A stretch of 59,458 bases of DNA, filler included. It is 6 parts of 6 records of this genome, joined end to end, with 100 filler letters (N's around TTAATTAATTAA, not from the genome) between each part and the next. Parts side by side here need not be neighbours in the genome. Positions count along the whole stretch, not along the records: positions 25,742 to 31,787 come from SRR31156797_51750; 5 more parts are not named here. One strand, given 5' to 3'. Each line of letters starts with the position of its first letter. Positions within the stretch are counted from its first letter, which is position 1. This document shows, piece after piece, positions 12,048 to 44,205 of the stretch. Both the position numbers and the translations under genes were made by a program. A model generated the notes under the pieces. It was given only the letters and a program-made list of their open reading frames with translations, was not told the DNA's origin and searched no databases.

Positions 12048-15000
12048 ATGATGAAAAAGCTTTACACATTATTCAAAGCAAGAACCCAATGGCGAAAGCG
12101 TATGCTTTTATTGGGTTTCATTTTTCTGGGCACCCTCACGGGGATAAACGCCCAGACGGTTTACACCTATTCCGGGACCATAAAAGGTACGAACGGAGAA
12201 ACTATCCCCGGAGTAAATGTTTATGAGGAAGGGACCACCAATGGTACAACAAGTGACATTGATGGTGCTTTTGAACTAACCTCAGCCAATCCAACTACGG
12301 TCCTCACTTTTTCATTTGTCGGGTTTCTACCCAAACAGGTTGAAGCGAAAGCAGGTGAAAAACTTGATGTGGTACTCGAAGAAAATGTGGTTGCACTTCA
12401 GGAAGTGATGGTAATTGGTTATGGCACCAAAAAACGCAGTGAAGTTACCGGAGCCATCTCCAAAGTAGAGGCCAAGCAACTGCAAAGCCTACCGGCATCC
12501 AATGTTGATCAGGCCATTCAGGGCCGTGTTGCAGGTGTTAATGTACTGCCCAGTTCCGGTTCTCCCGGTGCTGCACTAAAAGTAAGAATTCGTGGTACCG
12601 GCACAAACGGTAATTCTGATCCACTCTACATCGTAGATGGAATGCGCACAGGTGATATTTCACGTATCGACCCGTCAGATATCGAATCTGTGGAAATTCT
12701 CAAAGATGCTGCCTCAGCAGCGATTTATGGTGCTGAAGCTGCCAATGGTGTTGTGATGATCACCACCAAAAGCGGCCAAGCCGGTAAAGGCAAAATCAAC
12801 TATAACTTCCAGTATGGTATCCAGACTCCCGGCAAACTCACCGAAGTGATGGACGCCAACCAGTGGACAACATGGATAAACGAAGCCAATGTAGGTGTTA
12901 CAGTTCCAGAAAATCCGGAATACAACACCAACTGGATGGAAGAAATCACCAGCACTGCTCCAATGCAAAAACATTACCTGTCATTCTCAGGAGGAAACGA
13001 CAAGTCAAAATACATGGTTTCTGGCTCATATTTCAACCAGGATGGTATTGTTGGCCAGGATAAATCAAATTACGAAAGGCTAACCCTACGTTTCAACTCA
13101 AGCCACAACATTAAACCCTGGCTGGAAGTGGGTAATAACGTAACTTATGCCAACACAAAACGAGAAGCTGTTGCTGAGGACGATGAATTTAGCGGACTCG
13201 TTGTTGACGCACTTGCAATGGATCCAACAACGCCGGTTACTTATCCAAATGGATATTTACCGGAATTTGGACAAGCTGCTCTTGACGATGGATACACACT
13301 CCTTCAAGATGGCAGCGGAAACTATTATGGCCTTTCAGAGTTTGTAACCGGTGAGGTGGCCAACCCTGTAGCCAAGCTCTCAATTCAAACCGGAGAAACA
13401 ACACAAAACAATCTCTTCGGTAACGTGTATGCTAAGATTAAACCGATCAAAGGTCTGACTTTTACTACACGCGGCGGTATTGATTACACCGAACAACTCT
13501 TCGAAGAATGGTACCCAACCTATTGGTTTTCCGGTGAAAGGAATAACACTACACCGAACACACGCGATAACACCAACTATTGGTACACCTGGGTTTGGGA
13601 AAACTTTGCCAACTACGAAATGGCCTTCGACAAGCACAACATCAACCTTTTGGCCGGTACCTCAGCACAATCATACACCAGCAGATACCTCAACACACTC
13701 TCCGGCCCAATGTTCCAGGAAAATGAAGACTTTGCACAGCACGGTCCTGTTGACGTTGACGGAACCGTTAGCGGCACAAAACAAATGGAAAATCTGAATT
13801 CTTATTTCGGACGCGCGTCGTACAACTATGACGGTAAATACATGTTGGATGTTGCTATTCGTGCGGATGGTTCATCACTCTTTGCTCAAAATAACAAGTG
13901 GGGTTATTTCCCATCTGTTGCTGCAGGCTGGATCATCAGTGAAGAAGATTTCTTCAATTCTGGTGTTGTTGACTTCTTAAAGCTTCGCGCAAGCTGGGGG
14001 CAAAATGGTAGCCTCTCTAACCTTGGTCCCGACCAATTCCGCTCCTTAATTACTACTGCCGGTATTAAATACCCAAAGCCAGGTGGTGGATTTTATACAG
14101 GTGCTGAACCTGAATTACTTGCTAACCCGGAATTGACATGGGAAACCTCCGAACAGATAGATATCGGTTTGGATATGCGCTTCTTTGAGGGCCGCTTAAC
14201 TTTTGCTGCCGACTATTACAACAAAAAAACCATGGACCTGCTCACTCCAGGATCACCTCCGCTTTCAGTAGGTAATAATGCACCTTTCGTTAATGCAGGT
14301 GACGTTACCAACAAAGGCTTTGAATTTGAACTGGGATGGCGCGGTGGCGAAGGTGACTTCCAATACAATGTCGGTGCTAACCTTACCACATTGAATAATG
14401 AAGTTACCTATCTGAACCCACTCCTCGAGCGTGTATCAGGTGCTGGTGTAGGTACAGGCTGGACGGCCACATATTTCGAAGAAGACCAACCCATCTGGTA
14501 CTTCCGTGGATACGAAACCGATGGTATTTTCCAAAACCAGGCACAGATCGATCAGTATGTTGCTGACAATGGCCTTACAGGTTATGCTCCTGTTCCCGGC
14601 GATCCAATCGTCGTAAACACAAACGGTGATGATGTAATTAATGAAGACGACCAGACCTACATCGGCGATCCACATCCTGATATGCTGTTTGGCGCTTACT
14701 TTAACTTCATCTATCGTCAGTGGGATTTAAATCTTTTCCTCCAGGGTACTGTTGGAAACGATATCCTGATGGCCTGGAACCGTACAGACCGTTCTACCTA
14801 TAACCGCCCTGCATTCTTCTTTGAAGATCGCTGGACAGGTGATGGATCAACCAACGACTGGTTCCGTGCAGACCCATCTAACCCTTATGCATACAACAGC
14901 GACCTGATGGTATTTGACGGTAGCTATATGCGCATCAAGCAAATCCAGTTGGGTTATACGTTGCCCAAAAAAGTGCTCAACACGATCAAAGTTGATAATC

Positions 15001-15158
15001 TGAGATTGTATGTTTCGCTCGATGATTATTTCACATTCACCAGCTACCCGGGTATGGATGTTGAAGCAGGTAGTAATGATGATAACAGCCAGGGTGTTGA
15101 CCGTGGAGTATATCCTGTGCCAAAGAAATTTATGATGGGCTTACAAATTTCGTTATAG
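12048..15158 (+). CDS. susC: SusC/RagA family TonB-dependent outer-membrane transporter
   Basis: Signal peptide, CarboxypepD-like N-domain, IGYGT, PLYIVDG, DIESVEILKDAASAAIYG..AANGVVMITTK plug motif, NPELTWE, C-terminal beta strand. Confidence 0.96.
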   Translation: MMKKLYTLFKARTQWRKRMLLLGFIFLGTLTGINAQTVYTYSGTIKGTNGETIPGVNVYEEGTTNGTTSDIDGAFELTSANPTTVLTFSFVGFLPKQVEAKAGEKLDVVLEENVVALQEVMVIGYGTKKRSEVTGAISKVEAKQLQSLPASNVDQAIQGRVAGVNVLPSSGSPGAALKVRIRGTGTNGNSDPLYIVDGMRTGDISRIDPSDIESVEILKDAASAAIYGAEAANGVVMITTKSGQAGKGKINYNFQYGIQTPGKLTEVMDANQWTTWINEANVGVTVPENPEYNTNWMEEITSTAPMQKHYLSFSGGNDKSKYMVSGSYFNQDGIVGQDKSNYERLTLRFNSSHNIKPWLEVGNNVTYANTKREAVAEDDEFSGLVVDALAMDPTTPVTYPNGYLPEFGQAALDDGYTLLQDGSGNYYGLSEFVTGEVANPVAKLSIQTGETTQNNLFGNVYAKIKPIKGLTFTTRGGIDYTEQLFEEWYPTYWFSGERNNTTPNTRDNTNYWYTWVWENFANYEMAFDKHNINLLAGTSAQSYTSRYLNTLSGPMFQENEDFAQHGPVDVDGTVSGTKQMENLNSYFGRASYNYDGKYMLDVAIRADGSSLFAQNNKWGYFPSVAAGWIISEEDFFNSGVVDFLKLRASWGQNGSLSNLGPDQFRSLITTAGIKYPKPGGGFYTGAEPELLANPELTWETSEQIDIGLDMRFFEGRLTFAADYYNKKTMDLLTPGSPPLSVGNNAPFVNAGDVTNKGFEFELGWRGGEGDFQYNVGANLTTLNNEVTYLNPLLERVSGAGVGTGWTATYFEEDQPIWYFRGYETDGIFQNQAQIDQYVADNGLTGYAPVPGDPIVVNTNGDDVINEDDQTYIGDPHPDMLFGAYFNFIYRQWDLNLFLQGTVGNDILMAWNRTDRSTYNRPAFFFEDRWTGDGSTNDWFRADPSNPYAYNSDLMVFDGSYMRIKQIQLGYTLPKKVLNTIKVDNLRLYVSLDDYFTFTSYPGMDVEAGSNDDNSQGVDRGVYPVPKKFMMGLQISL

Positions 15159-15195
15159 CAAATAATCAAAGTTTAAAACTTATAAAATTACAGAT

Positions 15196-16719
15196 ATGAA
15201 TTTCAAACAATTATTTAAGATATGCAGCGCACTCGTGATTATCTTTTCCCTGAGTGCCTGCCAAAAAGACTTCCTGGAAACCGATCCCATGGGAAAAGCT
15301 GCAGTGAGTACTTTTTATAAAACCGACGAAGATGCAACCATGGCCGTTATGGCAACCTACGACATCCTGCAATGGATGTATGCACGCGACTGGAACAGCG
15401 CTTACCTCGTAAAAACATTTCCATCTGATGAATCCATTACAGGTGGTGGTGACGCAGGTGACCAGCCTCCTTACCAGGAACTGGATATTTTTACCTATTC
15501 CGCCGGTAATGTACCAATCCGCTCGGTTTACGAATCCAATTTCTACGGTGTGTATCGCGCCAACCTTGTAATCAACAATGTTATTCCTGAAACCGCTTAC
15601 CGCGAGCAGGTTATTGCTGAGGCCAAATTCCTTCGCGCTTATTTCTATTTCGAATTGGTTTCGATGTTTGGAAGTGTTCCTTTAACACTGGTAGAACTTG
15701 CCCCAAGTGAATATCAACAGCCACCGGCAACTGTTGGTGAAATTTGGGCACAGATAGAATCTGACCTTCAGGATGCCATTGCAGGCCTTCCCGCAAAAAG
15801 CCAGTATGGCGCCGACGACATCATGCGTGCTTCAAAGGGAGCAGCTCAATCATTGCTCGGAAAAGCATACCTGTACCAGGAGAAATGGGCTGATGCCGCA
15901 ACAGTTTTTGATGAGGTAATTGCCTCAGGCGAATACCAGCTTAGTGATGACTACAGTACTTTGTTCCTTGTTGATCAGGAACTGGGTTTGGAATCCATTT
16001 TTGAAGTGATGTATGTTACTACCGAAGGATACGACTGGGGAACATTCCAGTGGGGCGGCAACCGTGCCATGGAAAACAACATCCATTGGCAGCTTTGTGG
16101 CCCACGTGGTGACTATTTCACTTCTGACACAGTGCTAAACCTTATTGGCGGCTGGGGATTTAACTATCCTGAAATGGAGCTTTATGAAGCATTTGTTAAT
16201 GCCGGTGATGAACTTCGTCGTAATTCAACAGTTTGGAGCACAACAGAGCTGGAAGCCAATGGCGGCGGCTGGTCAAATCCCGATGCATGGGGCTGGGATG
16301 GCTGCATCCGCGTAAAATACGGAACCCGTATGAGTGAAACCAGTGGCGATGATGGTGCCGTTCCTGAATTGAATTACGGAACAAACCTCCGCTTGCTGCG
16401 CTATGCCGATGTATTGTTGATGGCTGCCGAAGCAAAACTGAATGCCGGTGATGCTGCAGGTGCACTCACAGAAATCAATAAAGTAAGGGAACGTGCTCAA
16501 CTGGATCTGCTCAACTCTGTTTCCATGGAAGATATCATACTGGAACGTCAGCTTGAGCTGGCCTTTGAAGGTGTACGTTTCCTCGACCTGATCCGCTGGG
16601 GAAAAGCAGCCGAAGTGCTTGGTGCACAAGGGTATGTTGAAGGCAAACACAACCTGTTCCCAATTCCGCAGGATGAGTTGACCAACAACCAGTATATGGT
16701 TCAAAATCCCGGATACTAG
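15196..16719 (+). CDS. susD: SusD/RagB family glycan-binding lipoprotein
   Basis: Lipobox LSAC, EAKFLRAYFYF, RYADVLLMAAEA, ERQLELAFEG.RFLDL.RWG, terminal QNPGY. Confidence 0.96.
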   Translation: MNFKQLFKICSALVIIFSLSACQKDFLETDPMGKAAVSTFYKTDEDATMAVMATYDILQWMYARDWNSAYLVKTFPSDESITGGGDAGDQPPYQELDIFTYSAGNVPIRSVYESNFYGVYRANLVINNVIPETAYREQVIAEAKFLRAYFYFELVSMFGSVPLTLVELAPSEYQQPPATVGEIWAQIESDLQDAIAGLPAKSQYGADDIMRASKGAAQSLLGKAYLYQEKWADAATVFDEVIASGEYQLSDDYSTLFLVDQELGLESIFEVMYVTTEGYDWGTFQWGGNRAMENNIHWQLCGPRGDYFTSDTVLNLIGGWGFNYPEMELYEAFVNAGDELRRNSTVWSTTELEANGGGWSNPDAWGWDGCIRVKYGTRMSETSGDDGAVPELNYGTNLRLLRYADVLLMAAEAKLNAGDAAGALTEINKVRERAQLDLLNSVSMEDIILERQLELAFEGVRFLDLIRWGKAAEVLGAQGYVEGKHNLFPIPQDELTNNQYMVQNPGY

Positions 16720-16794
16720 AACTTGTTAGTTATATATAAAGAACACTACATCTTATGTTGTAGTTTTTAGTTCTCATCATTGAAGTTTTGGATT

Positions 16795-16830
16795 TCGGGC
16801 TGTCGTTAATTCGGCAGCCCGATTTTTATT
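16795..16830 (+). terminator. Intrinsic terminator after susD
   Basis: TCGGGCTGTCG-TTAATT-CGGCAGCCCGA followed by TTTTTATT. Confidence 0.7.
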
Positions 16831-16912
16831 GTTAAAAACATATTAACCAAAAGCAAATATATTATTACTTTTGAAGATGAATTAACCATTTAGATCAACA
16901 AATTTAATCGCT

Positions 16913-17788
16913 ATGAAAAAAAGTTTATTGTTCTCTTTTTTAGGATTTTTATTTGCATTTGCCACCCAGGCCCAGGAAACCGCTTACAACAATTTTGGCG
17001 CCGATCACAACGGCTGGAATTATACCCACACGTCAGGATGGACCATTGCAGGCGAAAATGTTTCATCTCAATATGGTGTTGAGCAGGCCATGGGTTTCGA
17101 AGCCGCTGCCAGTGGTTTTGTAACCGATATCTGGGTAGCCATTTCATACGTACCGCTTAGTGCTCCGGCAGATACCGTAATAATCCGCCTGGTTGAAAAT
17201 CCGGACGGACTACCACCTGATACCACTCATGTTATGGAGGAATGGGTATTATCAGATTTTGAAAACTGGAACCAGTGGAACGAACCCATCCATCTTACCG
17301 GTCATTTCACCTCCTTCATCGAATCCGGAAAATCATACTGGTTATGGGCCATTGCAGCCGAAACGACCTGGACCATGTGGTGCTTCAACGAGGATCCATC
17401 ACTAACCTGTCCTCACACCATACGCAGGGAAGATGAAGAATGGCTCTCCATTTCCAATGAAACTGCAAGCGCTTTCAGGGTTGATGTTGGCTCAGGTGTT
17501 GGCATGGCAGATATTGAAAAAATGTCAGGCATACTTCACCAGAATTATCCAAACCCATTTTCATCAGAGACCAATATTAAATTCTCGATCACAGAACAAT
17601 CAAATGTTACGCTTAAGATTTACGATATTTTTGGTAGTGAGGTTTGTACCCTTTTTGATGGATTCGGCCAGGCAGGAGAAAATAACCTGACTTATGATGC
17701 CCGGAATATTCCGTCCGGAATCTACTTCTGCAGGTTAACTTCAGGAGGGCATGAGATAAGTACCATTAAAATGAACATCATGCACTGA
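16913..17788 (+). CDS. Secreted protein with C-terminal T9SS (Por) sorting domain; N-domain resembles choice-of-anchor R type
   Basis: Signal peptide; C-terminal QNYPNPF...LKIYDIFG...SGIYFCRL; TACTTTTG -7 element at 16866-16873. The N-domain assignment is from memory only. Confidence 0.75.
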   Translation: MKKSLLFSFLGFLFAFATQAQETAYNNFGADHNGWNYTHTSGWTIAGENVSSQYGVEQAMGFEAAASGFVTDIWVAISYVPLSAPADTVIIRLVENPDGLPPDTTHVMEEWVLSDFENWNQWNEPIHLTGHFTSFIESGKSYWLWAIAAETTWTMWCFNEDPSLTCPHTIRREDEEWLSISNETASAFRVDVGSGVGMADIEKMSGILHQNYPNPFSSETNIKFSITEQSNVTLKIYDIFGSEVCTLFDGFGQAGENNLTYDARNIPSGIYFCRLTSGGHEISTIKMNIMH

Positions 17789-25741: not shown

Positions 25742-25880
25742 GGCCCCTTTTAGGGGCCTTCCTCAGCCGCCAGATCTTTCGGTGGTTACTGATTTCTCAT
25801 GCCCACTCTCCCCCATTCCTTGACAACCCTTGCCACTCCCCGGTAAGCTGCCCCATACCCCAATACCAAAGAGGCTGCAA

Positions 25881-26408
25881 ATGGAAACCGAAAAGCGAGA
25901 CATACTCAAGCCCCTGGTGCATCCAACCGTATTCATTGCCGAAGGCGCCCGTATTTACGGGGACGTGATAATTGATCGGGATTCAAGCATCTGGTTCAAC
26001 GCCGTAATCAGGGGCGACGAAGGCCGGATAAATATAGGCCGGCAGGTGAATGTTCAGGACAATGTCGTCATCCACAGCGACCTTATGGAAGAAGTCCGAA
26101 TAGGAGACCAGGTTACAATAGGCCACGGGTCGGTGCTGCGGAGTTGCCATATCGGGTCAAACGTCATGGTCGGGATGAATTCCACCATCATGACGCATGC
26201 GGAAATCGGGGAAAATTCCATTGTGGGAGCCAATACCCTGGTTCCCTATCACAAGAAATTCCCTCCACGATCAATGATTATGGGTTCGCCGGCCCGGCTG
26301 GTCAGGGAGTTGACCGAAGAAGAAGTCGGTATGAACGTGGTATCCATCAAGGTGTACAAGGATTTGGTCGAGCTTTATTCCAGCGGCAGGATTGTAGGGC
26401 ATAAATAA
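25881..26408 (+). CDS. Gamma-carbonic anhydrase-like / YrdA hexapeptide-repeat protein
   Basis: IWFNAVIRGD, NVQDNVVIH, TIGH; left-handed beta-helix repeats; ATG 25881 preferred as start; TTGACA-18-TAAGCT upstream. Confidence 0.88.
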   Translation: METEKRDILKPLVHPTVFIAEGARIYGDVIIDRDSSIWFNAVIRGDEGRINIGRQVNVQDNVVIHSDLMEEVRIGDQVTIGHGSVLRSCHIGSNVMVGMNSTIMTHAEIGENSIVGANTLVPYHKKFPPRSMIMGSPARLVRELTEEEVGMNVVSIKVYKDLVELYSSGRIVGHK

Positions 26409-26438
26409 AACACCCCGCGGATTATTGCGGGGTTGTTT
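26407..26438. terminator. Probable bidirectional terminator between convergent genes
   Basis: AAAACACCCCGCGG-ATTA-TTGCGGGGTTGTTT. Confidence 0.55.
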
Positions 26439-26452
26439 AATAAGGAATGAAT

Positions 26453-28504
26453 TTAACGCAATACGTTATCGGCATGACCGACGCCGTCGTTATTATTCTT
26501 CCGGTCGCACGTAATCCGGACTTCACGAAGAAGACTGTTAAGGCGATAAGGCTTGGATATAAACCCGGCCGCGCCCGATTCAAGGCAGGTTTTAATCTGT
26601 TCGTCGGCTGAATAACCGCTGGCGATTATTACCTGCGCTCTAGGATCAATGGTCAGAATCCGTCTTAAACAGGCGTGGCCGCCGATGCCGGGCATTCCCA
26701 GGTCCATGATCACCAGGTCTATTTCCCGGCCCATTTCCTCGTATATTTCAAGAGCTCTTTCGCCGCTGTCCGCCAGAAAAGTCTTGTATCCATGCTTCTT
26801 AAGCACTTCGTCGGCAATTTCCAGTACGGAATGTTCATCATCCACCAGCAACAATGTTTCCTGGCCGCCTTCCACTTCGTGGACATGCATATTATGGCCG
26901 GATGTCAAAGCCGCGGTCGATTCGGCCGAAAGCGGCAGATAAATCCTGAACATTGCTCCTTTGCCGGTTATGCTTTCGCAGGTAATGTGGCCCTTATGAG
27001 CCTTGACAATGCCGTAGACCGTGGACAACCCCAATCCCGTGCCCTTGCCCATAACCTTGGTGGTGTAAAAAGGCTCGAAAATATGCTGCAATGCATTTTC
27101 ATCAATACCTTCTCCGGTGTCTGATACGCATAGCAGTGCATACTCTCCCGGATGCAAGTCCGGGTGGGCCTGGCAGAAATCTTCTCCTAAACTTTCTATG
27201 CGAGTGCTGATGGTAAGCCGTCCCCCCCTGGGCATGGCGTCGCGTGAATTAGCCCCCATATTCATGATTATCTGTTCGAGCTGATTTGCATCGCCGTCCA
27301 CAATAATTCTATCCCTGGAAAGATCGGTCTCTATTCTGACCATCTTGGGTATGGTCCGGTCCAGTATTTTAACCGCCCTTATTACTTCCAGGTTCAGGTT
27401 GACGGGTTGAAGCTCGGGCTTGACCTTACGGCTGAAAGTAAGAAGCCTCTGAACCAGGTCCGATGCACGCTCAACAGCAAGATCCGCTTCCACCAAATGA
27501 TTCAAACTGCCGGGATCGAGATTTACCTTCTGTAAAACCAGATGAATATAGCCGGATATCGCCTGCAGGATATTGTTAAAATCATGCGCGATCCCGCTGG
27601 CCAAAGTCCCCACGGCTTCCATTTTCTGGGATTGAAAAAGGTGTTCCTCCAACCGCCTCAGGTCTCGCTCTGCCTGCTTTCGCTCGGTAATATCAATGAT
27701 TGAAGCCATAATTCCAATCTGGTTGGATTTCGTATCCTCTATCAAGGAAGCCGTCAACTCGATCTCGCAAACCACCCCCTCGGAAGGTTCAATTACAAGC
27801 TCGCCCCGATACCCCTTTCGACGCCCCTTTTTTACAGCCTCGATTCCCTCAAGGATTTTTTCGTCCTGCCAGAAGTTTTCAATATTTTTCCCAAGCAGGT
27901 CTTCCGGCGCCTCGCAGCCCCAAAGAGCTATGAAAGCTGGATTTACATACGTGACTAGGCCGTCCAGGTTTGTTAGAACTATGCCGTTTATAGAGGTGTT
28001 GATCGAATATTCCTTTATAAACAGTTCATGCCGCTGACTTTCCAGGGCCGCGGTCAGGGCCTGCCTGAGCTGCTCCTGCTGTTGGAGAATCCGCGTCCGG
28101 TTCTCTTCCATAAAGCCCATGAGAACCGAACAACTGTAAACGGCGCAGACCTCCACGCTTTTATACAAAAGATCGTGGCCGTTTTCTTTCAGATAATCCC
28201 AACAAAACCGTCGCAGCACATCCCCTATGGCCAACACGCTCTTTTCCCCCAATCCCTCGCGGGAATGGGACTCGCCGTGTTTTAGTAGGGCGCTCTCATC
28301 CGGTTCGAGCAGAAAAGCGATAAAACTAGCGGATTCCTGCTCCGCAATCTCCCTGAGACGTCTTGGATGAAGGCCGTGCCGATTTTCAAAAGCCAGCTCC
28401 ATCAACTTAACAGTCAGGCGCTCGATCAGATCCGAACCATGTCCGGAAACTTTCTCATGAATCTCTGTCAGCTCGTCGGAATAAAATCTGTTATTAAGCG
28501 GCAT
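26453..28504 (-). CDS. Hybrid sensor histidine kinase (helical N-domain, PAS, HisKA, HATPase, REC), cytoplasmic
   Basis: PAS (NGIVLTNLDGLVTYVNPAF), GIAHDFNNIL H-box, NSRDAM, DTGEG, PFYTTK, GTGLGL, REC (LVDDE...IMDLGMPG...KP); no TM helix. Confidence 0.93.
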   Translation of the reverse strand: MPLNNRFYSDELTEIHEKVSGHGSDLIERLTVKLMELAFENRHGLHPRRLREIAEQESASFIAFLLEPDESALLKHGESHSREGLGEKSVLAIGDVLRRFCWDYLKENGHDLLYKSVEVCAVYSCSVLMGFMEENRTRILQQQEQLRQALTAALESQRHELFIKEYSINTSINGIVLTNLDGLVTYVNPAFIALWGCEAPEDLLGKNIENFWQDEKILEGIEAVKKGRRKGYRGELVIEPSEGVVCEIELTASLIEDTKSNQIGIMASIIDITERKQAERDLRRLEEHLFQSQKMEAVGTLASGIAHDFNNILQAISGYIHLVLQKVNLDPGSLNHLVEADLAVERASDLVQRLLTFSRKVKPELQPVNLNLEVIRAVKILDRTIPKMVRIETDLSRDRIIVDGDANQLEQIIMNMGANSRDAMPRGGRLTISTRIESLGEDFCQAHPDLHPGEYALLCVSDTGEGIDENALQHIFEPFYTTKVMGKGTGLGLSTVYGIVKAHKGHITCESITGKGAMFRIYLPLSAESTAALTSGHNMHVHEVEGGQETLLLVDDEHSVLEIADEVLKKHGYKTFLADSGERALEIYEEMGREIDLVIMDLGMPGIGGHACLRRILTIDPRAQVIIASGYSADEQIKTCLESGAAGFISKPYRLNSLLREVRITCDRKNNNDGVGHADNVLR

Positions 28505-28763
28505 GAGAAAAACCTTTTCACAATTAAGCGTCCACCCGGAAATCAGGAACTCTTTCCAGGGTCGGGAAAAACTGAAATCATTACCACAGACATTTTCAAG
28601 TTGGTTTTCACGAAACGATTATTAACAACATACCAGTCCGCCGACAGGCAGCCGGACGCATTTTTCGAGGATTAAATTTGGACCCCGACATTTATCCGCC
28701 ATGGGCGGATTCAACCGACGGAACGGAAAGAAGTTGTTATAAACAATCGTTATCAGGCGGACG

Positions 28764-29567
28764 CTACTTAGCCAATATGACGCCATAAAACCCTCGGCCG
28801 CCCCATTCTTCAATCTCTTTTTCCGTGATTTCGCGGCCAACGCCGACCCACTCATCCAAATACATGGGCCCCGGTTCTTCCACACGCCAGGGCTGAGCCA
28901 ACTCAAAGAGCTTTTCCTTGGTGCGAATATAGATGGGCTGACCTATGCCGGCGTAAAAATCAAATACAACCTTAAGCGAATCCGAAGTTTCAGATGCATA
29001 TGCATCCGCATCGCAGATAAAAAGGCGGGACCCCTCTGCGGCCCAGTCATATAGCGTTTTTAATGAATGTTGCATCTGGTCGTCCGTAAGGAAGTAAGCC
29101 ACGCCGTTGATGCCGATGACAACCTGGCGTTCGTCCCCGAACAACTCCTTTGTGGCGCTGGAGTTCAGGACGGTTTCAGGCTTGGCCGCATCCCCCTCAA
29201 GATATTTGACATCGGCGTTGTCGCCCAAAATATCCCTGCCGTATTGAACGGTCACGGGATCGATATCGGAATAGATCACCTTTGACCCCGACGGAGCGAT
29301 CTGGTGAATATGGTCCTGCACAGGCAACCCGGAAGCAAAATCAAGAAACCTGGTGTGCCCCTGTTTGGCCAGGCGCATGGCCGCTTCACCCAGAAACCAG
29401 CGAATAAGACGTAAAGTGTGCGGCATAAAAGGCGCCATCTCCAGAACCTTTTGCGCCGCCTGCCGGTCTACTTCAAAATTATGATGCCCGCCGATTAAAT
29501 AGTCGTAGATCCTTCCCGCGTTGGGGACTGTAGGATCGGCAATGCTTAACGTCTTCTTGTCATTCAT
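28764..29567 (-). CDS. SAM-dependent methyltransferase, DUF574/Methyltransf_19 family
   Basis: PNAGRIYDYLIGGHHNFEVDR family signature, FLDFASGLP motif I, YSDIDP, EPG; RBS AAGAGGAA. Confidence 0.88.
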   Translation of the reverse strand: MNDKKTLSIADPTVPNAGRIYDYLIGGHHNFEVDRQAAQKVLEMAPFMPHTLRLIRWFLGEAAMRLAKQGHTRFLDFASGLPVQDHIHQIAPSGSKVIYSDIDPVTVQYGRDILGDNADVKYLEGDAAKPETVLNSSATKELFGDERQVVIGINGVAYFLTDDQMQHSLKTLYDWAAEGSRLFICDADAYASETSDSLKVVFDFYAGIGQPIYIRTKEKLFELAQPWRVEEPGPMYLDEWVGVGREITEKEIEEWGGRGFYGVILAK

Positions 29568-29667
29568 TTACTATTCCTCTTCTTAGTGAATGTTAGCGTG
29601 AACCCATGAACAATGTACTTATCCCTCTAACCTAATAATCCGGTAACAAAACTGATATTAGATCTAG

Positions 29668-29684
29668 TGCAAAAAAAGCGCCAA
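29668..29684 (-). promoter_or_regulatory. sigma54 (-24/-12) promoter for the methyltransferase gene
   Basis: Minus strand TTGGCGCTTTTTTTGCA: GG-N10-GC with exact spacing, about 100 nt upstream of ATG 29567. Confidence 0.75.
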
Positions 29685-29701
29685 ATATCGCCGAATGTAT
29701 T

Positions 29702-29714
29702 TATCAACGGATTA
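29702..29714 (+). promoter_or_regulatory. Candidate IHF binding site
   Basis: TATCAACGGATTA matches WATCAANNNNTTR exactly, in an AT-rich tract just upstream of the -24 element. Confidence 0.55.
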
Positions 29715-30152
29715 TAGAAATATAATTCAAAAAAATCAATAAATATCACGTACAAGTAGCAATCGCCCGCCGAACGGCAAGGCAGGCTGAAATGTTATCA
29801 TTACAGATGCACTATAAATGTAATATTTTGTAACAGCTTGCATATGCTTAAAATAGACTTGTTCCGCCTATTTTACACTTAACGACGCCCGCCCGGTTTA
29901 TCTTTAAATTTTTGTACGATTTAAACAACTTAAACCGAATATAAACAAACACTTTCCGAGCCCGGTTTCTTAAAAACCAATATGGTGTATATCAAATTTC
30001 CAGAAAGAGCATTCTTGAGATGGCGCCCAAATATGTTATTTCTTAAAAGGGAAGGCCAGTTATTTGGGTTGCATCAAAACCCGGTCAATGTCATAAAAAC
30101 ACCGGGAAGGCATTAGGCCTTACCCGGAAAATTGCCGGACCATGATTGAAAA

Positions 30153-30749
30153 ATGGAAACTTTGGAAAAATATATACGCACTCTGACCAAGGAGGAAATC
30201 AATCAATTACCTCTTAAAAGATACAAGGGGCCGATAAACCTGGTTCGCTCAAAAAAGAAAATGAAATCAGCGATCGATCAGTTGCGCAAAGAATCAATCC
30301 TGGGATTCGACACGGAAACCAAGCCCTCGTTTAAAAAAGGCGTCACCAATATGCCGGCCCTGCTCCAGCTTGCCGGCAGCGAAACGGTTTATCTGTTCCA
30401 GTTGACCAGTATGTCTTTTCCAAAAGAATTGAAGCTTTTGCTGTCCGACCCCGATATCATTAAAACCGGCGTAGCCGTGCGGGATGACATCAAGGGCCTT
30501 AAGGAGATTTCGGAATTTGAAGAAGCCGGATTCATAGACCTTAGTGAAGTTTCCCGTCAATCCGGCATCCCGACCACCGGCCTGAGAACCATGGCCGCCA
30601 ATTTTTTCGGCATAAGGATATCCAAATCCGCGCAGAGTTCCAACTGGGGGCGCAAGGAACTCAAGCCCGCCCAGATTGTATATGCGGCCACGGATGCCTG
30701 GATGAGCCGTAAACTGCATTTATTCTTTCAGGAACTTGGACTTGTCTGA
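30153..30749 (+). CDS. 3'-5' exonuclease (DEDDy, RNase D/WRN-exo-like)
   Basis: LGFDTET (ExoI), LLQLA, VRDD, SNWG...QIVYAATDA (ExoIII). Confidence 0.9.
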   Translation: METLEKYIRTLTKEEINQLPLKRYKGPINLVRSKKKMKSAIDQLRKESILGFDTETKPSFKKGVTNMPALLQLAGSETVYLFQLTSMSFPKELKLLLSDPDIIKTGVAVRDDIKGLKEISEFEEAGFIDLSEVSRQSGIPTTGLRTMAANFFGIRISKSAQSSNWGRKELKPAQIVYAATDAWMSRKLHLFFQELGLV

Positions 30750-30788
30750 CAACTGATCTTTCTTCGATGGGCATGAAAGGGGACCGAA

Positions 30789-31691
30789 ATGCATCAAAAT
30801 CAAACAGCGTCGTTCTCCAGGACAGAACTTGAATTCACCAGCAAAGGAACCAAATGCTCAGCCTGGCTTTATCTTCCCGAAACCGAAGCCAAGCCGCCAG
30901 TCGTGATTATGGCCCACGGGTTTGGGGCTGAAAAAGACTTTGTCCTGCCCGAATATGCAAAACGATTCGCGGCCCGGGGTTTGGCCGTCTTTCTCTTTGA
31001 CTACAGAAATTTCGGTCAAAGCGACGGCCGGCCCAGAAATCTGGTCAATCCCAAACGTCACCTCCAGGACTGGCAAGCCGCCCTCGGTTTTGTGAGAAGT
31101 CTTGAACAGGTCGACGGCCAGCGCATCGGCCTGTGGGGAACCTCTTTCAGCGGCGGCCATGTCATCGTCACCGCGGCCAATGACAAAGGGATTAAAGCCA
31201 TTGTCTCCCAGGTTCCGTTTGTTGACGGCATCGCCTCATTGGGCCTTTACAATACATCCTTTATTATCAAGGCCATGCTCGCCGGCTTCAAAGACCTTTT
31301 CCGTTCGCTCTTTAATAAAGGACCTTACTGCATTCCGGTAGTGGCCGAACCCGGGCGTTTAGCGGTCATGAACGGGGAAGACGCCATGAGCGGGTATCTG
31401 GCCCTTGTTCCGAAAGATTCAAGCTGGAAAAACGAATGCCCGGCCCGAGTATTACTGACTGTCGGCGGGTACAGACCTGTCAGCTACGCCCCGCGGGTCG
31501 CCTGTCCGGCCCAGGTGCTGATTGCCGAAGATGATAATTATATCCCAGCCGCCGCTGTTGAAAAAACAGCCTCTAAAATGCCCCGGGCTGAAATAATCAG
31601 TCGTCCCGTGGGGCATTTCGACGTTTATGCCGGGGATGAATTCGAAATGTCCGTAACAAGGCAGTGCGATTTTTTCATTCAAAATCTGTGA
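30789..31691 (+). CDS. Alpha/beta hydrolase (peptidase S15/AidA-like)
   Basis: MAHGFG, FDYRNFG.S.G, GLWGTSFSGG nucleophile elbow, C-terminal GHF. Confidence 0.88.
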   Translation: MHQNQTASFSRTELEFTSKGTKCSAWLYLPETEAKPPVVIMAHGFGAEKDFVLPEYAKRFAARGLAVFLFDYRNFGQSDGRPRNLVNPKRHLQDWQAALGFVRSLEQVDGQRIGLWGTSFSGGHVIVTAANDKGIKAIVSQVPFVDGIASLGLYNTSFIIKAMLAGFKDLFRSLFNKGPYCIPVVAEPGRLAVMNGEDAMSGYLALVPKDSSWKNECPARVLLTVGGYRPVSYAPRVACPAQVLIAEDDNYIPAAAVEKTASKMPRAEIISRPVGHFDVYAGDEFEMSVTRQCDFFIQNL

Positions 31692-31745
31692 TAAGGCTAG
31701 CGGTTGCTCTTAACGCCCCTGCGTTTCGCGGACAGCCCGTAAAAT

Positions 31746-31775
31746 GAAGCTCCCCGTAGCAAGCTGCGGCGCATC
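31746..31775. repeat. Palindromic repeat/IS200-IS605-like end at contig break
   Basis: GAAGCTCCCCGTAGC-AA-GCTGCGGCGCATC hairpin just before the gap; family assignment recalled, not searched. Confidence 0.35.
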
Positions 31776-31787
31776 AAACGGAAACAT

Positions 31788-36854: not shown

Positions 36855-37826
36855 TTAAATTACGAATATAAGCACCAAGGCAATTACCATGGCGTAAATA
36901 ACTGTTGACTGGGCGACAGCCTGACCGATAAGCATTGTTCTGGTCAAAACGCCGCCGGCTTCTTCATTACGACCGACCCAACGAAGGGTTTCTTCGCCTG
37001 TTATACCATTGCCGAGCCCCGGACCGATTCCGCCGAGCCCCTGGCATAATCCAGCAGCCAGCACGGCCGCTGCCGTGATTATGCTTGCATCCGCGGGAAA
37101 TACCCGGAATATCAGCAATACGCTGACCACAAGACCGAAAATGGATGGGGTTTCCGTAACGGCCTGCCCGACAAGCATCGTTCCGGTAGCCCGGGCCTGC
37201 GCCTGGGGCTGGCGTGCTATTGTTTCACAGGTGGCCCCGGCGATCATTCCCTGACCTATACCGGCCCCGATAGCAGCCAATCCTGTGGAAAAGCCCGCCC
37301 CCAACAGGGCAAAGGCGTTGGGATTGAAAGCCCGGTCGCCGAAATCGAGAAACATCAGCATTAAAGACACGACCAGGGAATAGATGCCCTGGCTCTGGCA
37401 AACAGCCGCGCCAAGAATCATGGTCGTGGTTAATGTGCTTGTGGATGCAGGCTGACGGGCCATGCCTTCGCAAGCCCTGGCCGCCGGGAATCCCGAACCG
37501 ATGCCCGACCCGATAGCCCCGAATCCCATGCAGATGCCGGCGGCGATCAAGGCCACGGCCTTAATCATCTGAGGCGGAAACTGCATGAATATCAGGAGCA
37601 TGGCCACGACCAGGGCGAATATAGCCGTTGATTCGGCTACGGCCTGGCCGATAAGCATGGTTTTTATAGTATCTCCGGCCTTCTCGGGCCTCGAAGCGCA
37701 GGCCTTGTTGGCAAAACCCGCGATGTAACCTTCACCTATGGCCGCCCCGATCGCTCCCAACCCCATGGCCAGGCTTGCGCCGAAATAGCGGGCGCCGGTA
37801 ACCATAACTTCTACATCAAATGCCAT
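36855..37826 (-). CDS. atpE: Quadruplicated ATP synthase c subunit (4 hairpins, 8 TM helices)
   Basis: Four ~80-aa c-subunit repeats with essential-site motifs AESTAIF, CQSQGIY, TETPSIF, AQSTVIY. Confidence 0.92.
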   Translation of the reverse strand: MAFDVEVMVTGARYFGASLAMGLGAIGAAIGEGYIAGFANKACASRPEKAGDTIKTMLIGQAVAESTAIFALVVAMLLIFMQFPPQMIKAVALIAAGICMGFGAIGSGIGSGFPAARACEGMARQPASTSTLTTTMILGAAVCQSQGIYSLVVSLMLMFLDFGDRAFNPNAFALLGAGFSTGLAAIGAGIGQGMIAGATCETIARQPQAQARATGTMLVGQAVTETPSIFGLVVSVLLIFRVFPADASIITAAAVLAAGLCQGLGGIGPGLGNGITGEETLRWVGRNEEAGGVLTRTMLIGQAVAQSTVIYAMVIALVLIFVI

Positions 37827-37843: not shown

Positions 37844-38518
37844 CTACTTGATCTGCACGGAAATGTAGACCAAGGTTAACATGGTGAAAACAAAAGCCTG
37901 AATAGTGCCGACAAACAACCCGAAGAAGGCGTTAAGAAACGGCGGCAGAACAAGACTGTATATCAGATGGCCCACAACGATAATTATGATGCTTCCGCCC
38001 ATGATGTTGCCGTAGAGACGGAATGAGATCGAAACTACCTTGGCAAGCTCTCCGATAATGTTAAGGGGCATCATAAATATGAAGGGCTGAAAATACTGAC
38101 TCAAATAGTCCTTCAAACCCTTAACCTTAATACCCGAATAGTGCGCTATAACAAACCCTAAAAGCCCCAAGCTCAACGGAGTATTGAGGTCCTTGGTCGG
38201 TTCTGAAAAGTAAGGTATGATTCCCCAGATGTTACAGAGCCACAGAAAAAGGAAAAGACCGCAAATCATTGGAAAATACTTGCGGTGGTCTTCAATTTCC
38301 AATGCGTCGTAAACCATGTCGTCGAAAATAGACACAAATAGCTCGGCGACGCTCTGCAAGGGGTTGGGAATCAGCTTGGTCTGCCTTGTGGCCAGAAAAC
38401 CGAACAAGATCAAAACCCCCATGATCATCCAGGTGTTGATCAAGGGAGCCTGATTAAGGGTGATGTCAAGTCCGCCGATAGAAAACTGCCACTGCGGCAT
38501 GTATGTGATTTCTTTCAT
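37844..38518 (-). CDS. atpB: ATP synthase Fo subunit a
   Basis: PTKDLN, PLNIIGE, SISFRLYGN (essential Arg), IQAFVFTML. Confidence 0.95.
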   Translation of the reverse strand: MKEITYMPQWQFSIGGLDITLNQAPLINTWMIMGVLILFGFLATRQTKLIPNPLQSVAELFVSIFDDMVYDALEIEDHRKYFPMICGLFLFLWLCNIWGIIPYFSEPTKDLNTPLSLGLLGFVIAHYSGIKVKGLKDYLSQYFQPFIFMMPLNIIGELAKVVSISFRLYGNIMGGSIIIIVVGHLIYSLVLPPFLNAFFGLFVGTIQAFVFTMLTLVYISVQIK

Positions 38519-38519
38519 T

Positions 38520-38918
38520 TCAGCGCCCTTGTGCGGTCTGGTCGCCCATTAGCCCGTAGCGTTCAATGACCAGACCATAGATGAGAATGGATAACTGTAA
38601 GTTAAAGATGCCGATTGCGGTCCAAATGACGTTAAACTCAGGCAGGCGAAAAGCTGCATACAATGGCAGGGCCATCAAGCCCAGTCGCAGACCGAGCCCC
38701 AAGGCGCTGTGCGCTGTAGCCGATTTGCCTTCTTTACCAAGCCTGTTGGGCGCCTGCCAAGCCATGACAAGGAAGTTGATTAACGAGAAAAAACTTCCCA
38801 GCACAAAACCTTTGGCCGCTGGTTTATATCCAAGCAACAAAGCCCCGCCGCCTACGATTGCGGCGATGACCAGGATTAGTATGATTATAACTTTTTTAAA
38901 TTTTATTAAATCGCCCAT
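38520..38918 (-). CDS. atpI: ATP synthase subunit I (c-ring assembly factor)
   Basis: Four TM helices, GFVLGS..S.INF, position upstream of atpB; start uncertain (ATG 38918 chosen). Confidence 0.75.
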   Translation of the reverse strand: MGDLIKFKKVIIILILVIAAIVGGGALLLGYKPAAKGFVLGSFFSLINFLVMAWQAPNRLGKEGKSATAHSALGLGLRLGLMALPLYAAFRLPEFNVIWTAIGIFNLQLSILIYGLVIERYGLMGDQTAQGR

Positions 38919-38976
38919 AACACAGATACAGAGGAACTCGCCTCCATTTATGTACGCCAGATGTGAAAACAGGAAC

Positions 38977-39005
38977 AAAGTAGTCAAACCAGCGGATTTT
39001 GTCAA
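38977..39005 (-). promoter_or_regulatory. Possible internal sigma70 promoter before atpI
   Basis: TTGACA-17nt-TACTTT on the minus strand. Confidence 0.45.
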
Positions 39006-42948: not shown

Positions 42949-44205
42949 ATGAAGGTTTTAGTGATTGATAATGATCCTGCTATCGGCAAATCATTTAAAG
43001 AACTGCCGATTGATATCGAGGAACTGCAGGCACTCCATAGCGGAGATGCAGCCATAAGAGGGGTAAAAAACGCACTGAAACGGAGAGATCCGTTTGAGTT
43101 GATCGCAATCGATATCGATTTGCCTGATATGGATGGAAGAAAAGTTACACTTGAAATCAGAAAAATCGAGCAGGAATGGTCAATTTCTCGTGAGAAAAGG
43201 GCCTTTGTCATGATGGTGACGGCACAGGCGGATGAGAAATCCGTCAAAACGTCCTTTGCCGCAGGGTGCAACGCATTTATCGTCAAGCCTTTCAAGGTCG
43301 AGACAATCGTGAAGACGCTCGCCAACAGCAGACTCAAATCCAAACTGTCCCGCGATGCCCAAAAAGAGCAAAAATTGGTGAATCCCATCGATATTATTCT
43401 GCGAAGATTGGAAACCGGAAAGCTTCAGATGGCGTCTCTGCCGGATGTAAGCATGAAATTGAATGAAATGGCTAAAAAAGGGCTCGATTTTAAATTGATC
43501 GGCGATCTTATTCGGAAAGATATGGCGATCACCGCAAAGATCATGAGCGTATCCAATTCCGCCTATTATGGTGCCGCTTCAAAAACCAAAACCGTGGACG
43601 AAGCCATATCACGTATCGGTCTTTATGCCACAAAGCAATATGTGGATGCCATATGCAACCGAAAATTATTTGTTACAGACGACAAAAAATATGTGAAGTT
43701 TGCAGAGGCATTGTGGAAACATTCTCTTTACTGCGCCATCGCCTCCCAAGGTGTTGTTAACCTCCTTGAACTTGATCTGAAAGCCGATGCTTTTTCAATC
43801 GGACTGTTGCACGATATCGGTAAAATGTTTCTATTGCAGATGACCTCCGAGTTGGAATCAAAAGAACAGTTGAACGGAAAGATCGACTTGGAGATGCTGT
43901 TCAGTTCATTGGAGAAATATCACAACTCCATCGGGGCGAAAACCCTTAGACAATGGAAATTTTCCAGGGAATACGTTGAAGGCGCGCTGTTTCACGATAA
44001 TTTGGAAAAAAAGGATTCGCCTTCTCAACAGTTGCTGGTGCTTCATTTTGCCAATGCTCTGGCAAAAAGCATGTTAAAAAAGAAGGACGATGACTCGGAT
44101 ACCAATTTAGCCGAGTTGGAATCTGCCCTTCTTCTCAAAATAACACCGGAGATGATTGTTGAAATTAAAAAAAGGATCGAAGCGCAATTGCCCCTTTTCA
44201 GTTGA
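42949..44205 (+). CDS. Response regulator receiver plus HDOD domain protein
   Basis: VLVID, IDIDLPDMDG, VKPF; LP...D.AITAKI.SVSNSAYYG, LWKHS, GLLHDIGK. Confidence 0.88.
   Translation: MKVLVIDNDPAIGKSFKELPIDIEELQALHSGDAAIRGVKNALKRRDPFELIAIDIDLPDMDGRKVTLEIRKIEQEWSISREKRAFVMMVTAQADEKSVKTSFAAGCNAFIVKPFKVETIVKTLANSRLKSKLSRDAQKEQKLVNPIDIILRRLETGKLQMASLPDVSMKLNEMAKKGLDFKLIGDLIRKDMAITAKIMSVSNSAYYGAASKTKTVDEAISRIGLYATKQYVDAICNRKLFVTDDKKYVKFAEALWKHSLYCAIASQGVVNLLELDLKADAFSIGLLHDIGKMFLLQMTSELESKEQLNGKIDLEMLFSSLEKYHNSIGAKTLRQWKFSREYVEGALFHDNLEKKDSPSQQLLVLHFANALAKSMLKKKDDDSDTNLAELESALLLKITPEMIVEIKKRIEAQLPLFS

Follow-up and report, generated by a model that had tools for sequence, protein, structure and literature searches.

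A PF04672 methyltransferase gene forms a conserved pair with genes for kinases carrying a previously undescribed, predicted globin-fold N-domain

Why should a gene for a methyltransferase lie directly before a gene for a histidine kinase? The question is raised by a locus on the minus strand of a 59,458-nucleotide (nt) stretch of DNA (hereafter the window, six parts joined end to end with filler between them, of which positions 25,742 to 31,787 come from SRR31156797_51750). Here, a gene for an S-adenosylmethionine (SAM)-dependent methyltransferase of family PF04672 precedes a gene for a soluble hybrid histidine kinase with an unusual N-terminal domain (the N-domain, or ND). Comparison with related loci indicates that the methyltransferase and the ND kinase are very probably a functionally coupled two-gene input module. 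Our first choice of mechanism, which has a precedent in a kinase of Bacillus cereus and is given a probability of about 0.4, is that the enzyme methylates the ND directly. The pair and the domains of the kinase are located as follows.

28764..29567, minus strand: SAM-dependent methyltransferase of PF04672 (Methyltransf_19 / DUF574), 267 amino acids (aa) (open reading frame (ORF) and Pfam)
28505..28763, minus strand: intergenic spacer, 259 nt, without a terminator-like site
26453..28504, minus strand: soluble hybrid histidine kinase, 683 aa, with ND, PAS, HisKA, HATPase_c and receiver (REC) domains (ORF and Pfam)
28010..28504, minus strand: ND, residues 1-165, with C-terminal stalk helix 110-164
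28043..28090, minus strand: stalk motif, residues 139-154, I-L-x-[E/D]-Q-E-x-L-R-x-A-L-x-x-A-L (ND alignments), a candidate methyl-acceptor or dimer-core element
27674..28003, minus strand: PAS domain, residues 168-277 (Pfam PAS_9, 1.2e-11)
27425..27610, minus strand: HisKA phospho-acceptor domain, residues 299-360 (Pfam, 9.5e-08)
26927..27295, minus strand: HATPase_c catalytic domain, residues 404-526 (Pfam, 1.3e-21)
26519..26851, minus strand: receiver domain, residues 552-662 (Pfam, 5e-24)

The downstream gene encodes a HisKA-type hybrid kinase: HisKA, HATPase_c and the C-terminal receiver all score above the Pfam cut-offs, and an H-box (AHDFNN) and a receiver motif (VIMDLGMPG) can be read from the translation. 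In NCBIfam it aligns best with CckA-like and PRK13557 kinases, every score falling far under the cut-off. A preliminary description of this locus had reported a PF04672 gene 259 nt upstream of a co-oriented, soluble kinase whose first ~160 aa were unannotated, and these points are borne out. The kinase has no membrane-like segment (highest 19-residue hydropathy 1.27), and residues 1-165 match no Pfam family even at E ≤ 10, no N-terminal NCBIfam model and no PDB chain by sequence search.

On sequence evidence, the ND is a real family that was previously undescribed. A phmmer search with residues 1-165 against 1.84 billion cluster representatives recovered 221 proteins at E ≤ 1e-3 and 76 at E ≤ 1e-10; a word-seeded search with the same residues matched a single near-identical protein. 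Domain contexts were read from the 150 listed of the 221 hits, 75 of them shorter than 200 aa and 75 long (≥ 200 aa). The domain is always N-terminal, its match starting within the first 64 residues in 150 of 150. Most of the short proteins (62 of 75) span the whole domain and end 0-41 residues beyond it. In the long proteins, scanned with Pfam, the ND is followed by PAS-HisKA-HATPase-REC or by one to five GAF domains, in some proteins together with a kinase, or it stands directly before HisKA, HisKA_2 or HisKA_3. It is also joined to SpoIIE (P0103), to GAF-STAS (P0080, P0106 and P0129) and, in one of the 75, to GAF-GAF-GGDEF-EAL (P0064, in which GAF and not PAS comes after the ND). No Pfam family covers the ND in these 75 proteins or in 65 long ND proteins encoded beside methyltransferases.

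The consensus of the family reads F.N....HPRRL.EIA, then G..LA.EGLG, then LLEGY...RE..IL.EQE.LR.AL; the segment quoted in the preliminary description, GFMEENRTRILQQQEQLRQALTAAL, is residues 130-154 of the kinase. Conservation was counted in an alignment of 55 NDs lying beside methyltransferases. Residues P47, G84 and Q143 are invariant, and G77, G130, L140, E144, R147 and A149 are conserved in at least 90% of the sequences. The Gln/Glu-rich helix that had been singled out earlier as a possible methylation target turned out to be the most conserved part of the domain, with Q143 in 55 of 55 sequences, E144 in 52, R147 in 50 and A149 in 53. Stand-alone NDs (n=57) keep this motif as well (Q143 95%, A149 95%, E144 81% and R147 68%).

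The ND is predicted to adopt a six-helix, 3-over-3 globin fold with a long stalk. An AlphaFold2 model built from the alignment of 55 (mean predicted local distance difference test score (pLDDT) 95.2, predicted template modelling score (pTM) 0.87) has helices at residues 9-20, 23-36, 47-66, 70-83 and 87-108 and a 55-residue last helix at 110-164. When this model was compared with the PDB using Foldseek, all 34 matches listed were globins or phycobiliprotein-type globins. The nearest neighbour is the RsbR N-domain (2bnl; template modelling (TM) scores 0.61/0.76, root-mean-square deviation 2.9 Å), and the model also matches the globin-coupled sensor domains 5ohf and 2w31 (TM 0.53-0.56), 4zva and 6m9a. 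Because the Foldseek E-values are modest (0.035 and up, none at or below 1e-3), this is a likeness at the level of fold and not demonstrated homology. A profile search of the PDB with the ND family gave chance-level hits only, and by sequence the domain matches no Pfam globin or RsbR model.

No His is conserved in the ND, and the family would for this reason be a haem-free globin. The proximal-like position, residue 76, varies (H in 18, R in 9, Q in 7, L in 7 and Y in 4 of the 55 sequences), and no alignment column has His above 64%; the window's own ND carries H76 and H80. Two identities were considered for the domain and rejected: a haem-binding globin-coupled sensor, given that the proximal His on the fourth helix is not conserved, and a photoglobin, given that the 75 + 65 ND proteins have no B12-binding Pfam hit and helix 3 (residues 47-66) has no conserved Asp. 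Conserved small and polar residues (F39, N41, R42, P47, G77, A81, G84 and R98) line helices 3-5.

The upstream partner belongs to PF04672 with an E-value of 2.5e-41 (142.4 bits, cut-off 26; residues 11-257 on positions 9-263 of the 268-position profile), and its sequence aligns with those of its PDB relatives 2qe6 and 3giw (2e-21). Relatives fall into 1025 clusters at E ≤ 1e-10; the top 120 of these, PF04672 without exception, have identities of 50-67% and lengths of 220-270 aa. The nearest genomic relatives (62-64% identity) are in metagenome-assembled genomes of delta/Thermodesulfobacteriota. Residues R19, D22, G26-G27, N30, D34, D76, G80-L81-P82, H88, D101 and D103 are conserved in 55 members of the subfamily and nine members from a plasmid database. 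Because the SAM-binding and core residues are conserved (such as D76, G80, D101 and D103), the window's methyltransferase is probably an active enzyme. Six further aromatic or His residues (H29, W57, H86, Y109, Y173 and W227) are invariant and specific to the subfamily. In the open PubMed Central and bioRxiv literature, we found no functional study of PF04672, no substrate for it and no account of its pairing with the ND.

If the two genes belong together, they should be found together elsewhere. Related loci were therefore picked by methyltransferase similarity alone (using an alignment of 32 sequences) from species-representative genomes, with no use of the ND. The best 80 of 209 methyltransferase relatives were taken, from 72 assemblies by accession prefix, and the ND was sought by local hidden Markov model (HMM) searches with ND and methyltransferase profiles on six-frame ORFs. 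Six of the 80 loci had less than 700 nt after the gene and were left out as unassessable (L011, L015, L044, L053, L067 and L069). An ND gene lies directly downstream on the same strand in 64 of the 74 assessable loci. In three more an ND-kinase gene lies directly upstream (L046, L047 and L049), in one the ND gene is convergent (L040), and in six there is no ND (L034, L035, L036, L043, L050 and L051). The pairing covers at least five phyla, Spirochaetota, Chloroflexota, Thermodesulfobacteriota, Myxococcota and KSB1, and holds at 41-64% methyltransferase identity and 23-43% ND identity. This adjacency is far beyond chance and strongly supports the idea of a portable two-gene module put forward in the preliminary description.

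The two genes are typically close. Across the 64 loci the ND match (E-values 5e-07 to 4e-52) begins -6 to +509 nt after the methyltransferase stop, with a median of 61. The intergenic gap is mostly a few to about 100 nt, and in several pairs (L016/L017, L028, L037 and L079) the genes overlap by 4 nt. The same distance in the window is ~286 nt, and distances of at least 199 nt occur in 5 of 65 pairs. Some loci are more elaborate. In eight (L010, L022, L058, L066, L072, L073, L078 and L080) the order is methyltransferase, stand-alone ND (~150-160 aa), ND-kinase, and in three (L001, L022 and L058) two or three tandem methyltransferase paralogues stand before one ND-kinase. Our search found no fused methyltransferase-ND protein, which is weak evidence; an independent case of the pairing, found from the ND side, is the chimeric gene call P0147, in which the C-terminus of a methyltransferase (48% identity) runs into an ND (34% identity). 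On contig CAVUXE010000003.1 (L016 and L017), two identical copies of the methyltransferase gene face opposite ways at a distance of ~2 kb. A full ND-kinase (636 aa) comes after one of them and a 295-aa ND ORF after the other; either a recent inverted duplication or an artefact of assembly could account for this.

The pair appears to have no regular third member. All-against-all clustering of the neighbours in the 80 loci gave no third gene family present in more than 13 loci, and the 13-locus cluster was taken, unchecked, for an antisense ORF artefact. The neighbours of the six ND-less methyltransferases include trigger factor, an oxidoreductase, an ABC permease, small ORFs and a GAF-HD-GYP protein. 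The last of these, encoded upstream of the methyltransferase in L051, and a small ORF in L036 were considered as hidden NDs and rejected by hhalign. A DUF3369 and HD-GYP (HD_5) family, likely response regulators with cyclic di-GMP (c-di-GMP) phosphodiesterase activity, is found at or near the pair in 8 of the 80 loci (L001 4612-6177, L007 9023-10105, L012 8873-9916, L020 8816-9847, L041 8989-9402, L019, L047 and L078).

Has the pair been inherited as a unit? A tblastn search of 72,556 plasmid records with the window's methyltransferase matched 75, of which 55 are from Streptomyces; all matches were below 60% identity, and the 40 listed were at 25-33%. Nine plasmid loci, eight actinobacterial and one from Nostoc, were examined (the Nonomuraea record is without annotation). 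In a quick maximum-likelihood tree of 94 methyltransferases, these nine fall on one side of a branch with a Shimodaira-Hasegawa-like approximate likelihood ratio test (SH-aLRT) support of 94 and the 85 subfamily members on the other. ND pairing covers the whole of the subfamily tree. The six ND-less methyltransferases are scattered inside Spirochaetota clades and require five changes, and their positions suggest that the ND was lost secondarily or that these genes are additional copies. The pairwise distances among the methyltransferases track those among their partner NDs with r 0.686, compared with 0.446 +/- 0.028 for within-phylum shuffles, none of 2000 of which reached the observed value. 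This correlation points to inheritance of the pair as a unit and does not imply contact between the proteins. The ND diverges faster than its partner, with a mean distance of 0.70 against 0.53 and a mean column identity of 39% against 57%.

On the output side the ND has been less constant. In a tree of 78 NDs, which has few alignment columns and many unresolved forks, the stand-alone state requires six changes, at least three of them forced by well-supported branches, so the ND has recombined with outputs repeatedly. Together with the domain scans, this agrees with the earlier suggestion that the ND serves varied output modules.

The actinobacterial members of PF04672 have other neighbours. 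Beside the methyltransferase gene in four of the eight actinobacterial loci (L083, L084, L085 and L089, on Streptomyces and Embleya plasmids) there is a convergent gene for a helix-turn-helix regulator and a DUF397 gene, with an "ATP-binding protein" gene also present in L089. We take this to be a WhiJ/BldB/AbaA-like setting, and it is a second, different regulatory context for PF04672 enzymes. In the plasmid of Nostoc sp. NIES-3756 (L082, 5010-6861), a distant PF04672 gene is followed with zero gap by a gene for an 82-aa hypothetical protein and then by one for an RpaB-type response regulator, with no ND.

How, then, might a methyltransferase provide input to a kinase? We propose that the two genes make up one sensory unit in which the PF04672 enzyme would supply the input to the haem-free globin-fold ND. 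The two genes would be co-transcribed, and the methyltransferase would dock on the ND and methylate the polar stalk motif [E/D]142-Q143-E144-x-x-R147-x-A149. The signal would then pass down the stalk helix to the PAS-HisKA-HATPase-REC region and set kinase activity. As no esterase gene is linked to the pair, the methyl mark would be one-way or only slowly reversed. This working mode would be that of the orphan methyltransferase RsbM of Bacillus cereus, whose target is a signalling helix in the hybrid kinase RsbK. In favour of direct methylation, the enzyme retains its conserved core, and the stalk motif is kept even in stand-alone NDs that have no output domain. The occurrence of one methyltransferase gene before two ND genes and, as weak evidence, the lack of a fusion fit an enzyme that acts in trans.

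Several points weigh against direct methylation. First, conserved polar motifs in signalling helices also occur without methylation. Second, the heptad register of the stalk is ambiguous, and the register that scores best (0.66 with Q143 at core position "a", against 0.47 with Q143 at "e") would make Q143 a structural polar layer and not an exposed acceptor; E144 faces solvent in both plausible registers. Third, the actinobacterial relatives stand beside unrelated regulators, a setting more easily accounted for if the family makes signals than if it methylates proteins. Fourth, co-transcription of the pair in this genome is not certain because the 259-nt gap is at the long end of the range. 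Fifth, the structure 3giw holds a phenylalanine-like unknown ligand, and its authors suggest small-molecule enzymes of the PNMT, HNMT or COMT type (PMC2954221, PMC2954220).

Another possibility is that the methyltransferase is the synthase of a signal for which the ND is the receptor. The enzyme would methylate a small molecule such as an aromatic amine, an aromatic acid or a fatty acid (the last giving a methyl ester), and the product or substrate would be bound in the globin pocket of the ND. The kinase would conceivably report a metabolite or a self-made, membrane-permeant signal, as in the PhcB/PhcS system of Ralstonia. This is possible, and we rank it as a close rival of direct methylation. 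Synthase and receptor genes are typically adjacent, as here; the residues conserved along helices 3-5 are of the small and polar kind; and the diversity of regulators beside the actinobacterial relatives and (as weak evidence) the lack of a fusion suit a small-molecule product. Globin-fold pockets bind small ligands, and the N-domain of RsbR, the closest structural neighbour of the ND, is said to bind a fatty acid (PMC8717448). With 3giw already likened to small-molecule methyltransferases, a further precedent is PhcB, which makes methyl 3-hydroxymyristate that is sensed by the kinase PhcS (PMC8578825). Against a ligand-binding ND, no ligand is known and the proximal-ligand position is the variable residue 76; moreover, PhcS is a membrane sensor and the kinase in the window is soluble. 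A synthase and receptor would also leave unexplained why the stalk motif is the most conserved stretch, even in stand-alone NDs, and why 4-nt overlaps, which suggest matched expression, are so frequent.

Those overlaps, together with the tight adjacency and the co-divergence of the partners, would also suit a co-sensor complex, in which a protein of methyltransferase fold reads SAM, S-adenosylhomocysteine (SAH) or its own substrate, binds the ND non-covalently and switches the kinase. Separately encoded H-NOX proteins that act with kinases, and the eukaryotic SAM sensor SAMTOR, are analogues of such an arrangement. The subfamily-specific residues H29, W57, H86, Y109, Y173 and W227 could form the partner surface, and N-domains of the RsbR type are thought to be docking or sensing surfaces. 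We nevertheless regard a co-sensor as unlikely, as the fully conserved residues of the catalytic core argue for turnover over mere binding. Sensor subunits are also often fused to their partners in some lineages, and no fused form was found here (weak evidence). The gene copy numbers also fit a complex less well: a single methyltransferase gene frequently accompanies two ND genes, and as many as three methyltransferase genes in tandem stand before a single ND gene.

A different origin had been proposed for the module in the preliminary description, which held that methyltransferase and N-domain precede PAS-GGDEF-EAL proteins such as RmdA and CdgA in Actinobacteria and that the window carries a copy rewired from c-di-GMP enzymes to a histidine kinase and receiver. 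A few observations are in keeping with this. An ND-GAF-GAF-GGDEF-EAL protein exists (P0064), and HD-GYP genes occur near the pair in the 8 loci listed above. The gene rmdA "appears to be in an operon with" the upstream gene vnz33670, whose product is not named in the accessible text (PMC6205966). In Streptomyces ghanaensis, RmdA (PAS-PAC-GGDEF-EAL) has 714 aa and CdgA 649 aa (PMC7911125), which by our estimate is longer than their named domains need. We nevertheless consider this origin improbable. The kinase is the norm for the ND and not a rewired form: of the 65 long ND proteins beside methyltransferases, 59 have HATPase_c, 48 HisKA, 44 REC, 42 PAS_9 and 13 GAF, and none has GGDEF or EAL, while P0064 is the only GGDEF-EAL protein among the 75 long proteins in the 150 listed hits. 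A tblastn search with the window's ND matched nothing in the 72,556 plasmid records, among them actinobacterial replicons of several megabases that carry as many as 16 DUF574 copies, and P0064 matched this collection through GAF, GGDEF and EAL only, its ND region matching nothing. An HMM search (E ≤ 10, filters off) found no ND in the nine plasmid loci, and the annotation of the eight actinobacterial DUF574 loci contains no GGDEF/EAL neighbour (0 of 8 for either). The window's methyltransferase itself belongs to the non-actinobacterial subfamily, at 25-33% identity to the actinobacterial members, which lie on the far side of the tree. Of the earlier interpretation, then, the portable module and the varied outputs survive, and the kinase as a rewired c-di-GMP output does not.

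That the two genes have no functional link and are neighbours through shared ancestry only is hardly credible: although the window has a 259-nt spacer and 6 of 74 loci lack an ND neighbour, adjacency is kept in at least five phyla while every other neighbour changes, with gene order retained and the genes often overlapping.

Direct methylation of the ND would have a wider consequence. It is conceivable, though on balance doubtful, that the PF04672 subfamily consists of dedicated signalling protein methyltransferases that mark the invariant Q-E motif in the stalk of haem-free globin sensors, which would themselves form a fourth such family. The mark would be a CheR-independent and esterase-less input. 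If this is true, such an input would tune histidine kinases, and in relatives SpoIIE, STAS and GGDEF-EAL proteins, across Spirochaetota, Chloroflexota, Thermodesulfobacteriota, Myxococcota and KSB1.

The surroundings of the pair in the window were scanned for transcription signals. As the promoter and terminator scan consists of consensus matches whose site counts are not above those of shuffled sequence, the following two sites are candidates.

29711..29739, minus strand: sigma-70-like promoter candidate upstream of the methyltransferase gene, TTGATT-17-TATAAT (10 of 12 consensus matches)
26412..26433, no strand assigned: bidirectional terminator-like hairpin, 7-9 pairs, 6 of them G-C, with T-rich tails on both strands

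The terminator-like hairpin would close both the two-gene unit and a convergent hexapeptide-transferase gene. The same scan found no terminator-like site in the spacer (28505-28763), as the preliminary description had noted. The predicted RNA structure of the spacer is more stable than that of shuffles (z -2.78; 0 of 200 fold as well) and includes two G+C-rich hairpins. Rfam has no match in the spacer or in the upstream region, and the spacer sequence occurs once in the window and in none of the 80 related loci. By Pfam, the flanking genes (hexapeptide transferase, 3'-5' exonuclease, alpha/beta hydrolase and trypsin-like protease) are unrelated to the pair, each member of which is single-copy in the window.

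Several features elsewhere in the window were also observed. The only other signalling protein among the scanned ORFs is a REC-HDOD protein (42949-44205, plus strand), which is not adjacent to the pair. Positions 12048-17788 encode a SusC-like TonB receptor with a CarboxypepD_reg domain, SusD and a type IX secretion system (T9SS) Por_Secre_tail protein, a set of the Bacteroidota/FCB (Fibrobacterota-Chlorobiota-Bacteroidota) type. The GC content is 0.40-0.47 up to ~26 kb, 0.47-0.50 at 26-36 kb and 0.61-0.63 at 46-50 kb. The label "deltaproteobacterium" for the window is doubtful, and the window may be mosaic or mis-joined. A 323-aa ORF (36855-37826, minus strand) with four ATP-synt_C matches (E 6.6e-61) adjoins genes for the ATP synthase a and I subunits (37844-39005); a four-hairpin F-type c subunit would be unusual. 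In the stretch with a GC content of 0.61-0.63, a 998-aa DnaE-like Pol III alpha protein (47333-50329, plus strand; PHP, NTPase, finger and HHH_6 domains) may have been acquired as an error-prone polymerase cassette.

Sensor kinases that have an accessory methyltransferase of their own are a known kind of system; what is new here is the family of the enzyme, the domain that serves as receptor and the fact that they are paired. RsbM of B. cereus is probably CheR-like, whereas the enzyme here is PF04672. Its target RsbK is membrane-bound with a CHASE3-HAMP-GAF architecture, while the kinase described here is soluble with a globin-like N-domain, and methylation, which is shown for RsbK, is inferred here. 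RsbM methylates the S-helix of RsbK, a hybrid kinase with a receiver; the two share an operon, and no esterase is paired with the enzyme (PMC4574943). The pair in the window likewise combines a methyltransferase gene with a hybrid kinase gene and no esterase. The methylated site of RsbK is in the signalling helix between sensor and kinase domains (PMC4574943), and the rsbK-rsbM order, with the kinase first, is also seen in L046, L047 and L049.

In chemotaxis, the SAM-dependent methyltransferase CheR writes on Glu/Gln pairs of the coiled-coil helix of methyl-accepting chemotaxis proteins (MCPs). A CheR-type adaptation system was considered for the pair and rejected, as the enzyme matches PF04672 only and there is no linked esterase or third conserved gene. 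The receptor also differs, a predicted globin fold with a stalk in place of the four-helix MCP bundle, and the stalk motif does not fit the MCP consensus EEXXA(S/T). PhcS of Ralstonia is a membrane kinase on which the signal acts from outside the cell, while the pair here is cytoplasmic. The PhcB/PhcS system is alike in that a sensor histidine kinase responds to a signal produced by a methyltransferase (PMC8578825).

On the receptor side, the ND resembles the N-domain of RsbR and the globin-coupled sensors (AfGcHK, GsGCS, DosC and BpeGReg) in its N-terminal globin fold of ~150 residues and in the long C-terminal helix that leads into the output, and three ND relatives end in STAS, as RsbR does. 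It differs from them in having no sequence match to their models and no conserved proximal His, and the literature consulted makes no mention of a methyltransferase partner for them. Photoglobin, described by Schneider et al. in 2021 as the third non-haem globin family, is also a haem-free globin fold in prokaryotic signalling proteins, either stand-alone or fused to PAS, GAF, SpoIIE or histidine kinase domains (PMC8717448). Photoglobins are nearly always fused or adjacent to B12-binding domains and have a conserved Asp in helix 3, neither of which applies to the ND, and the word methyltransferase is absent from that paper (PMC8717448).

The pair places in a functional context, for the first time, a methyltransferase family that had been known solely through two structural-genomics entries, defines a new, predicted haem-free globin sensor family with a high-confidence model, and offers a two-protein system open to direct study in vitro. 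If stalk methylation is true, it would be a second, independent origin of methylation-based control in bacterial signalling. Kinases with a separately encoded enzyme input are few and well studied (CheR/MCP, RsbM/RsbK and PhcB/PhcS), and the methyltransferase and ND kinase are a widespread, unstudied addition to them.

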